Below are positions 57,564 to 59,995 of a DNA stretch of 64,000 bases, piece after piece. How positions within the stretch are numbered: position 1 is the first letter of the stretch; each line of letters starts with the position of its first letter. Position numbers and translations under genes: made by a program. The stretch is from Amphiscolops sp. MND2022 (Eukaryota), in the NCBI GenBank assembly GCA_964187785.1, contig OZ076409.1, forward strand, positions 42,038,001 to 42,102,000. The letters run 5' to 3'. A model generated the notes under the pieces. That model saw nothing but the letters and a program-made list of their open reading frames with translations. It ran no database searches and was not told where the DNA came from.

Positions 57564-57908
57564 TCAATTGTAGTTGTCACGGATTGATTGTAGACTGGGA
57601 GAGGTTTTGTTTCGTCTTCTCAATTCGAGGAAGTCAATGAGCTTGTTGAGGAGGAACAGTGTTAGAGGGTGGATGTGGTCGAGATAGGCAATTTGCCTAT
57701 ATTCCTTTAGTGCGAGTGAGAGATCAGTAGCCTCTTGGGAGTTGGTGTCAACTGGGATGAGCCAATGTCCTGGGTTTTGTGGTCGGAGGCTATGGAGTTC
57801 GATTTGTAGTGAAAGTGCGTTTTCTTTCCAAGCGATAGAGAGAATTTCGAGAAGTGTATTTGTTTCAGGGTGGCGCCAGAGAAACTTGAGTTGAATCTTA
57901 AACATCAT
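57564..57908 (-). CDS. Small orphan accessory protein, 114 aa
   Basis: ATG overlaps the end of the upstream ORF by 11 nt; shares a motif pattern with neighbouring small ORFs. Confidence 0.7.
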   Translation of the reverse strand: MMFKIQLKFLWRHPETNTLLEILSIAWKENALSLQIELHSLRPQNPGHWLIPVDTNSQEATDLSLALKEYRQIAYLDHIHPLTLFLLNKLIDFLELRRRNKTSPSLQSIRDNYN

Positions 57909-58293
57909 AAGTGTCGACTAGGCTGTGAAGGTATTTGATTCTAACTTCTTCTTCGAAGGGGTTGGAGGTGAGAGTGATGTCCATAAAATAAACCAAGTCG
58001 TCGAAAGCCTTGTCTTTGAGAACTGCGGGGTGTTGGAGGATGTATTGCTTGAACGAAAGGAATAAGTAGGCGTATTCCTTGGATCCGAAGTGAATAGGGA
58101 AGAGGACTAGAGCTTCTTTGTCTTCTGGTGTGAGTATACGCACTTGAATCGCAGAGGTTGTGATCTCGTAGAAGATTGACTGTATTTCGTATTGGCCCTT
58201 GAGTTGTATGGGAGTCCAAGGAACAGGAGGTTGAAACTGTGTGTGGAAGTAGTAATTATTTCCGCGGAACACGGCGACTGCGGGAGAGGACAT
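57898..58293 (-). CDS. Small orphan accessory protein, 131 aa
   Basis: ATG within a TAATG overlap with the upstream ORF; globular composition. Confidence 0.7.
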   Translation of the reverse strand: MSSPAVAVFRGNNYYFHTQFQPPVPWTPIQLKGQYEIQSIFYEITTSAIQVRILTPEDKEALVLFPIHFGSKEYAYLFLSFKQYILQHPAVLKDKAFDDLVYFMDITLTSNPFEEEVRIKYLHSLVDTYDV

Positions 58294-58514
58294 TAAATGA
58301 CTGACTTGGCTCTTGTGACGACTTCAGTAGGGGTGTTGTTATATAGCAAGCTCTCCAGTAGAGGGTAGATAGGTGATGCTGGCACACAAGTGTAGGTTTC
58401 ACTTTCTTCTTCTGCTATTGCGTATGCTTGTACGATAATGTTCTGCGTTGAGGGTTCCTTCTGGATATCTGTGATTTGTGAAAGACGGTTGTCGATTTTG
58501 AAGATTATGATCAT
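58293..58514 (-). CDS. Small orphan accessory protein, 73 aa
   Basis: ATG directly preceded by acceptor-like TCTCACAG; stop coupled to the next ORF. Confidence 0.6.
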   Translation of the reverse strand: MIIIFKIDNRLSQITDIQKEPSTQNIIVQAYAIAEEESETYTCVPASPIYPLLESLLYNNTPTEVVTRAKSVI

Positions 58515-58804
58515 CTGTGAGATACTTCAGTGTTCACTGTTGTTCAAACATGGCAAATCTGAGAATGTAATCATCAGTTATTTCATTGCGTTGGAGGACA
58601 GAGGTGTTTGAAAAGTATAAACACGATCTCGTAGAAGATCGTGGTTGAGTACAGAGAAGTTTCAAAAGATATATTCTATCTATTGTAGGATTATCGTAGG
58701 CGGTTTAGGCAAATAACCATAAGATATTGTTATAAAATAAGAGATAAATATTTGTTTAAGCATGCATTACTTTAGGACAAAAAAAAAGCTAAGATATCTT
58801 CAGA

Positions 58805-59449
58805 ATGAGTAACAACAACGAGTCTGACTACTACGAGGAATCCTCGACCGATGAGGAAACAGTTGCGTCTGCTGCTTCGTCGTCTGCTCCCTCGTCGTCT
58901 GCTCCCTCGTCGTCTGCTCCCTCGTCGTCTGTGGGCCCTTCGTCGGCCGCTGGGCCTTCTTTGTCGTTGGCTGGGCCTTCTTTGTCGGCGGCTGGGCCGT
59001 CCTCCTCTTCTGCGCCTGTTGCTGCTGTGGCCCCCAGGCCAGTCCTGCAGGCCTCCACAGTAGTGGCTCAAGGGGTTTTAGAGAACCCCGGAGAGCAGAG
59101 TTTTCTCAGGCTCTTTAACCGGAGGGACGTGGACCGGTTAGAGAATTGGGCCTCTTTGTCCCGTTCCATGCGGGGGTCTCCCGGGTTTGCCTTATCTGGG
59201 GCGCCCATCCCAAATGCCTTTGTGAGTTTCTTGAGGGCCAACCTGGGAGCCCGTTGGGAGGGAACCCTCCTGTCCCCTCTAGGGGAATTAGTGCTGTGTC
59301 AACTGAGGGCCTATATAGATGGGTTCTGCCAGTTGACCAGCTTCGAGAGGGGGCAGTGGGTGAGGCTGTACCAGTTATGGACCAGAGAGGAGCGGGCTTC
59401 CCAGTTGAGGCGGCTAGCGGAGAAAGGCGGTTTCCTAGAGATTGAGTAG
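58805..59449 (+). CDS. Antisense ORF within element B, 214 aa (acidic and S/A/P-rich repeat N-terminus, helical-looking C-terminal domain)
   Basis: ATG to TAG; GC-rich block sharply bounded by AT-rich flanks; TATAAAA at about 58731; in-frame 18-bp and 24-bp repeats (SSSAPS, SLAGPSLS). Confidence 0.65.
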   Translation: MSNNNESDYYEESSTDEETVASAASSSAPSSSAPSSSAPSSSVGPSSAAGPSLSLAGPSLSAAGPSSSSAPVAAVAPRPVLQASTVVAQGVLENPGEQSFLRLFNRRDVDRLENWASLSRSMRGSPGFALSGAPIPNAFVSFLRANLGARWEGTLLSPLGELVLCQLRAYIDGFCQLTSFERGQWVRLYQLWTREERASQLRRLAEKGGFLEIE

Positions 59450-59608
59450 GCGCAAGTCGCCTCTCATCTCCAGGAAAATTATCTATTTTTATACGCTTCT
59501 GTGCTTGTGGCTTTTCGTAAGTCATGTTCGGGATTGCACAAATAATATCGATAAACGGAAGTAGAATATATTAAAGGTAATACATCGCTAATAGGTTAAA
59601 TGTGCCGG

Positions 59609-59995
59609 CTAGGAGCTAGGTGAGGAGATAGTCGAGCAGCAGAATAGGTCCTTTTGAGTATTGGGTGAGGAAGGTTGTAGGTCAGGAATTAGGGTAGGCA
59701 TGTAGGATAAGAGTTCTTCTAGGATAGGGTCGTGATGGTTGACTGCATGGTAGGCTAGGTGCTGATATAGTTGAGCAAACGTTTTGGATTCTGGGTGAAC
59801 ATGAAGATTTGATTTTCGGGGCGTAGGTTGTTTGTGGGGGCTCGGGTCTGGGTCGTTGGAGTAGAAGCAAATTCTAATTAGTTTGTTTGTGTAGGTCCAG
59901 TAGATTTTTGTGATTGTAACGTGTAGAACGTTTAAGGATTGGAGTTCTCGTGGAACTTGCCATGATAAATTTAGGTAAACTTTATGACAAGGCAT
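59609..59995 (-). CDS. Small orphan accessory protein, 128 aa
   Basis: ATG 8 nt after the pol stop; shares a motif pattern with the 131/114/73-aa ORFs. Confidence 0.7.
   Translation of the reverse strand: MPCHKVYLNLSWQVPRELQSLNVLHVTITKIYWTYTNKLIRICFYSNDPDPSPHKQPTPRKSNLHVHPESKTFAQLYQHLAYHAVNHHDPILEELLSYMPTLIPDLQPSSPNTQKDLFCCSTISSPSS

Follow-up and report, generated by a model that had tools for sequence, protein, structure and literature searches.

A putative family of small accessory proteins encoded between pol and env of a Ty3/Gypsy element in Amphiscolops

To date, the accessory genes of Ty3/Gypsy elements have mostly been single cases. The locus examined here, in a stretch of 64,000 nucleotides from Amphiscolops sp. 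MND2022 (contig OZ076409.1; the whole stretch is hereafter called the window), raises the question of whether such genes can also form families, and of what use they would be to the element that carries them. Between pol and env, the window holds four small ORFs, designated A, B, C and D (128, 131, 114 and 73 aa, respectively), which a preliminary description had presented as diverged members of a single tandemly expanded, fast-evolving effector family, perhaps devoted to anti-silencing. The four ORFs were found there on the minus strand with the motifs that it had quoted, and none of them reaches a Pfam cut-off. Our main conclusion, drawn from sequence comparisons, is that a known kind of element probably carries a new accessory protein family in arrays, that one of its members also occurs in giant non-LTR repeats, and that its function may be inferred along the lines given below. 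A whole element clade would in this respect resemble a complex retrovirus.

The host element and its small genes

By its domains and copies, the element that hosts the ORF cluster is a young multi-copy Ty3/Gypsy LTR element with a viral-type envelope gene (Table 1). The order of its parts is pol, A, an antisense ORF, D, B, C, three repeats, env, a 177-aa ORF and a MATH ORF, and the domains within pol follow the order RT-RNase H-integrase, as required of an env-bearing Ty3/Gypsy LTR element. The gag gene and the 5' LTR lie just outside the window. Positions 376-5490 of locus L031 correspond to window positions 48086-53196 at 99.8% identity, and this near identity of the 5' end with the window argues that the insertion is young. 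Gag and protease frames were read in L031, while the Retrotrans_gag match on the tandem copy is slightly below the cut-off; the flanking LTR repeat starts with TG at both ends. The tandem second copy, at window positions 48086-53196, is truncated and shares its LTR with the first. A separate Gypsy element without env occupies window positions 583-13832, with direct repeats 11 kb apart that contain 29-nt tandem units.

Table 1. Features of the element and its tandem neighbor, in window positions
Feature	Position	Strand	Remarks
pol (RT, RNase H, integrase)	60004..63999, runs past window end	-	Pfam RVT_1, RT_RNaseH, Integrase_H2C2 and rve over cut-off
ORF A, 128 aa, putative long family	59609..59995	-	start 8 nt past pol stop
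Antisense ORF, 214 aa, low-complexity N-terminus, outside A/B/C family	58805..59449	+	kept in sister subfamily, 37% identity
ORF D, 73 aa, putative short family	58293..58514	-	stop overlaps B start (TAATG)
ORF B, 131 aa, putative long family	57898..58293	-	
ORF C, 114 aa, putative long family	57564..57908	-	C start overlaps B end
Three non-coding repeats, spacing ~170 nt, upstream of env	57065..57533	.	76-88% kept in sister subfamily
env-like fusion glycoprotein, 715 aa	54839..56986	-	PF24664, E 5e-31, 107.8 bits versus cut-off 27
Conserved ORF, ~177 aa, no family assigned	54205..54738	-	homologues after env in array-bearing families
TRAF-type MATH-domain ORF, 300 aa	53306..54208	-	PF22486 and PF21355 over cut-off
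3' LTR and leader of second, tandem element	50664..53196	-	99.8% match to L031 376-5490

Conservation among copies indicates that A, B, C and D are real genes. Searches of the 1.07 Gb genome, in which match counts are lower bounds and include fragments, gave at least 105 matches for B, 153 for C and 97 for D, and at least 150 scored matches of 535 candidates for A. At the 30 best B loci, which are related copies rather than independent ones, the reading frame is free of stops in 28 of 30 cases for B, in 24 of the 26 copies placed without gaps for D and in all 28 placed copies for C, and synonymous variants predominate. All four genes are present in the same order in a sister subfamily (L032-L034), where they are 49-68% identical to those of the window, compared to 80% for pol and 74% for env; the supposed fast evolution holds only between subfamilies. 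Within them, selection is purifying: relative to a closer subfamily (L038, 93% identical), pN/pS is 0.13 for A, 0.05 for D, 0.09 for B and 0.19 for C, next to 0.08 for pol and 0.06 for env, and by these ratios A, B, C and D are all under purifying selection. The search for positive selection that had been recommended came out negative, as pN/pS exceeded 1 for no gene in gene-wide tests of within-family comparisons.

Two other ORFs of this interval deserve mention. The antisense ORF shows a pN/pS of 0.65 against the sister subfamily, a comparison in which synonymous sites are saturated. In that subfamily, an extra ORF of 176 aa resides between A and D (L033:5613-6143), behind a strong splice-acceptor-like sequence; it is MATH-like by eye, and a Pfam scan of it gave no match.

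Two sets of relatives among the small proteins

Direct comparisons of the four proteins gave a limited signal. With single sequences, one of the six pairs, B-C, scored clearly above shuffles (z 4.5, p 0.002). The pairwise profile comparison that had been suggested as a check gave P values of 0.026-0.059 among A, B and C with shallow profiles and was weak as a whole: column shuffles reached the score in 0 of 100 trials for A-B, in 8 of 100 for A-C and in 11 of 100 for B-C. Such weak pairs are what would be expected if A, B and C were unrelated or convergent small alpha/beta proteins, whose likeness would lie in shared hydrophobic patterning. A profile search of 1.84 billion representatives brought up 61 clusters that are related to A. 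For one member that was put to the test, no match in this genome exceeds 42%, so the A family is present in at least one other genome. With a deeper A profile, B was recovered with a score of 26.1, which none of 150 shuffles equaled; C was not, its score being reached by 72 of 150 shuffles and by 1227 of 2886 decoys.

The search for related elements, also proposed in the preliminary description, proved more fruitful. Among 4013 candidates from an env search of the genome, two families, F3 and F4, have env genes 56-61% identical to that of the window and carry arrays of their own between pol and env (11 loci read), encoding 136, 72 and 154 aa in F3, and 71, 107, 106 and 132 aa in F4. Their long ORFs are clearly paralogous (z 7-52, with two neighbors 52% identical) and under purifying selection (pN/pS 0.16-0.28). 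All three element families have two to three long paralogues per element, and in each a short gene of the D type stands directly ahead of a long one. These arrays co-occur with one env clade: in env families at a greater distance (env identity of 36% and 27-29%; 8 loci, with ORFs listed for 5), pol adjoins env or is separated from it by a gap that contains no family members, from which we infer that the accessory genes lie outside the core cycle. One locus with an env identity of 83% (L081) has no array upstream; it appears rearranged and was left out of the counts.

F3 and F4 also provide an independent profile, built from their long ORFs only and never trained on A, B or C. It was scored against 2886 natural six-frame segments, which include pieces of pol, env, gag and MATH and from which 105 family-matching segments had been removed; most of these decoys come from non-coding frames, and real proteins would have been a harder null. 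A obtained 14.4 bits and C 13.9, values as high as which no decoy scored, and B 8.1 bits, equaled by a single decoy, while reversed copies gave 0.3-1.5 bits. The common pattern that had been noticed by eye is thus beyond chance for A, B and C, which beat 2886, 2885 and 2886 of the 2886 decoys, respectively. With A, the same F3/F4 profile forms an alignment of 87 columns whose score none of 120 shuffles attained; B (5 of 120 shuffles as high) and C (3 of 120) align in that register too. Joint profiles lift B to 18.1 bits and C to 15.7. One register, extending over 48-87 columns, is common to all groups. In the joint alignment, it comprises four strand-like blocks, a conserved Trp or Tyr and two amphipathic helices, with a Ser ahead of the first helix in most rows.

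We conclude from these comparisons that A, B and C very probably belong to one unannotated family of distant paralogues. The scores are modest (8-14 bits), three C rows of the sister subfamily score about zero with the independent profile, and shuffles can mislead, since a short out-of-register match between the short family and A also beat 120 of 120 of them. Convergence, which these points and the mostly non-coding decoys would suit, is nevertheless improbable: an untrained profile places all three proteins at the top of the natural segments and matches them in one register, and the genes occupy the same place in the element, with overt duplicates in a related family. The proposed tandem expansion is accordingly retained for A, B and C, given the independent profile and the similarity of neighboring genes in the related family. 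A tree of 40 members separates the F3/F4 genes from A, B and C (98/94), with long branches and a midpoint root only; it is consistent with duplications inside each lineage. One further member of the long family (P0146) lies on a 538-nt contig and bridges two subgroups.

As for D, the sequence comparisons connect it with neither the common pattern nor the tandem expansion. The F3/F4 profile of the long family does not match it (98 of 120 shuffles as high), and the independent profile gives it no score among the 2886 decoys. Instead, D appears to be a member of a separate short family, together with the 71-72 aa ORFs of F3 and F4: when they are aligned end to end, the global score is reached by 0 of 1000 shuffles. 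Local profile tests between D and these short ORFs were not significant (81 of 120 shuffles; 68 of 2886 decoys). In each element family, no more than 2 bases separate the end of the short gene from the start of a long one, and a TAATG overlap of stop and start codons exists in the window, in the sister subfamily and in F3. A match between the short and long families was rejected for being out of register, and one between D and A over PLLESLL (8 columns, deeper A profile) because reversed D scored higher.

Gene A in giant repeats

Part of the genomic matches of A, a class at 52-56% identity, has another setting: none of 15 fetched loci contains pol or env within ~10 kb. Extension of 12 of these loci to 20-80 kb revealed zinc-finger, JmjC-like, SET-like or recombinase-like ORFs in the vicinity of 9, and in several loci collinearity extends over tens of kb, at 94-99.5%. 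They represent very young giant repeats, at least about 55 kb long by overlapping comparisons, in which zinc-finger, JmjC-like, SET-like and tyrosine-recombinase-like ORFs follow each other in a row; examples are found at G000:C8:8593200-8673100 (L120, L064, L061, L057, L062, L066), and also in C9, C5, C3, C2, C10, C12 and C1521. Pfam support is marginal, with JmjC at the cut-off in one of three pieces and SET below it. The recombinase-like ORF is, from its motifs, presumably of the tyrosine type, and gave no match in a Pfam scan. A sits 5-20 kb from the JmjC-like and SET-like ORFs.

The 13 copies of A compared in these repeats show purifying selection, with synonymous and nonsynonymous changes at 22:27 (ratio 0.33, p 1.6e-4). 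In one giant-repeat subfamily (L067:7676-8005, L113, L115), A is accompanied by a further paralogue, which shares 35-38% identity with it and lies head to head with it, ~4 kb away. Moreover, a 10-base stretch ahead of the A start codon in a giant repeat (L047:2001-2013) is found again at the pol stop and spacer of the LTR element (window 59993-60010), hinting that giant-repeat A was captured from an LTR element.

This second host of A bears on the possible role of the repeats between pol and env. Lineage-specific repeat arrays occupy the pol-env interval in all three array-bearing families (window 57065-57533; L075:5002-5687; L077:5820-6914). They might act as internal promoters or enhancers; in Tor elements, according to the available part of that report, the space between pol and env contains an internal promoter for env (PMC4402516). 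An Rfam scan of window positions 50000-61000, which include the three-repeat zone, gave no match. Alternatively, A, B and C could be sequence-specific DNA-binding anti-silencing proteins that recognize the tandem repeats of this same intergenic zone, in the manner of the VANC proteins of Arabidopsis VANDAL transposons, which are likewise diversified, transposon-encoded and found beside variable tandem repeats, their targets forming repeats of this kind according to the text available (PMC5735166). The company of A with JmjC-like and SET-like ORFs would fit as well. We consider this quite unlikely, however: the window's repeat unit is absent from the A-bearing giant-repeat regions compared, and none of 12 such regions has an array of the 8-mer common to the LTR families, its density there staying at or below 2 per kb. 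This 8-mer was picked after the repeats were seen and is in opposite orientation in the window's family. Moreover, the proteins have no conserved basic surface, and no sequence link to VANC was found.

Predicted structures, possible functions and known systems

Models of A and D bear out the strands-then-helices architecture that had been read from the sequences, for these two proteins. The AlphaFold2 model of A (pLDDT 74.5) has four strands, with a short helix inserted and two further helices at the C-terminus; that of D has four strands and one helix (the best model at pLDDT 75.4, three of the five near 50). In structural comparison, the best alignment of the D model is with domain I of EF-P/eIF5A, an SH3-like fold (Z 5.8, rmsd 2.5, 52 residues); the tool itself notes that Z values below 8 reflect an arrangement that is common. 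The A model reaches a best Z of 4.5, mostly in PH-like rows, and has EF-P chains at Z 3.3-3.5. As both models have four strands followed by a helix, and the same EF-P chains appear in both lists, a common fold of A and D is possible. Chromodomain and Tudor folds, which were considered as well, turn up for D in low rows only (Z 3.3-3.7).

Other database searches were largely negative. A Foldseek search of the PDB with both models found none at E 0.001, the best for D being E 0.1 or worse; the viral fold library gave no match to A at E 0.001; and in the ESM Atlas, A had only leads below 0.9 and one related-family member no usable match. A Pfam scan of the four ORFs and of 40 long-family members gave nothing near the cut-off, and a PDB sequence search with the short-family profile gave nothing. 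With the joint profile, the best PDB sequence match, an HSP90 middle segment at E 0.007, was partial and was taken as chance.

The D model invites the view that these proteins bind RNA and regulate how the element itself is expressed, acting on export of unspliced RNA, splicing or env translation, as CERV of Cer1 does in the portion of the report at hand (PMC10309623); an element with so many downstream ORFs needs such control. Yet many members are acidic and the pI is not conserved, the structural Z values, also for the EF-P chains weakly listed for A, are those of a common arrangement, and A is kept under selection in repeats that have no RT, gag or env nearby. This function is therefore unlikely. 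A role as particle or envelope helpers, that is, as fusion-protein partners or small fusogens, would explain why the genes lie directly ahead of env and co-occur with a single env clade, and small accessory fusogens are reported, in the text available, for MDG1 elements (10.1101/2025.03.14.642691). It is most improbable, given that other env families do not have these genes, that A is maintained in env-less repeats, and that the proteins have no hydrophobic segment. Indeed, 51 proteins have pI values of 4.3-9.5 and a top 19-residue hydropathy of 1.45, and by this measure none of them contains a transmembrane segment, a feature of sORF2/FAST-like fusogens. Proteins of the A-D type are thus predicted to be small and soluble. 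The variable pI, together with the lack of any hydrophobic window above 1.45, is easier to reconcile with protein binding than with a conserved role at nucleic acids or membranes.

We tentatively favor, as a reading that may well prove wrong, that A, B and C are accessory proteins that bind host proteins to blunt host control of mobile DNA. Four observations lead to such adaptors or decoys: env elements do not generally need these genes, which apparently multiplied and diverged lineage by lineage, neighbor a MATH gene and are used by an unrelated element. D, B and C would be made from one subgenomic RNA and translated by stop-restart coupling where the stop codon of one overlaps the start codon of the next, as in known viral cases. 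Each paralogue would be a one-domain adaptor or decoy, with its predicted four strands and helices, and would bind a different host factor; duplication and loss in each lineage would then shift the set of targets, which might belong to silencing or antiviral signalling, alongside the MATH protein of the element. An anti-silencing effector role, as first proposed, is plausible, the company that A keeps with JmjC-like and SET-like ORFs being circumstantial. Against host binding speak the lack of the gene-wide positive selection that often marks a direct arms race, the marginal JmjC and SET matches at their distance of 5-20 kb, and the proximity of the D model to SH3-like barrels of RNA-binding translation factors, which suits RNA regulators instead.

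The retention of A by two kinds of elements probably means that a general host barrier is addressed. It is conceivable, if rather doubtful, that a family of small counter-silencing domains is traded across classes of animal mobile elements, forming arrays in Gypsy and captured by recombinase-bearing elements of at least 50 kb with histone-modifier-like genes, as a common anti-silencing toolkit. Paralogue arrays appear to turn over by lineage, and one member crossed to an unrelated giant repeat where it is still selected. As soluble proteins of 70-150 aa would be easy to express, counter-control by animal transposons becomes directly testable.

How do these genes compare with known systems? In literature titles and abstract beginnings, within a scope outside subscription journals, repeat databases and supplements, no description of this family was found; deposited annotation may exist. 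Small conserved Ty3/Gypsy accessory genes with real functions, comparable in kind to A-D, are sORF1/sORF2 of the Drosophila MDG1 group (10.1101/2025.03.14.642691) and CERV of Cer1 (PMC10309623), but these are single genes in the available accounts, those of MDG1 being helical or transmembrane, whereas here soluble, predicted alpha/beta paralogues occur in arrays. In bdelloid rotifers, LTR elements likewise have an accessory gene in common with unrelated mobile elements, but, in the part of the report available, these extra ORFs encode enzymes already known, GDSL esterase and DEDDy exonuclease, and are found among retroelements (PMC5408684); here, an unannotated small domain, in arrays, is also carried by non-LTR giant repeats. 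The planarian giant Gypsy Burro/GYPSM1 also combines env-like and MATH_TRAF domains with accessory ORFs proposed to meddle with the host, but most of its domains form one polyprotein of ~4,900 aa, and the accessible text describes no small-paralogue array (PMC6431247).

Finally, the element of the window shares with env-carrying Ty3/Gypsy elements (errantiviruses in the broad sense), as presented in the accessible part of their survey, the gag-pol-env order, the LTRs and a viral-type fusion glycoprotein (PMC13524379). The main text of that survey makes no mention of MATH or TRAF. The window element differs from those surveyed by accessory genes that take up ~3 kb between its pol and env, and by two ORFs after env. 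Outside insects, the survey took POL-ENV gaps of at most 1000 nt, in regions of up to 10 kb; elements of the window's type would be skipped under this limit, and short-gap filters in general miss elements with so long a pol-env gap.
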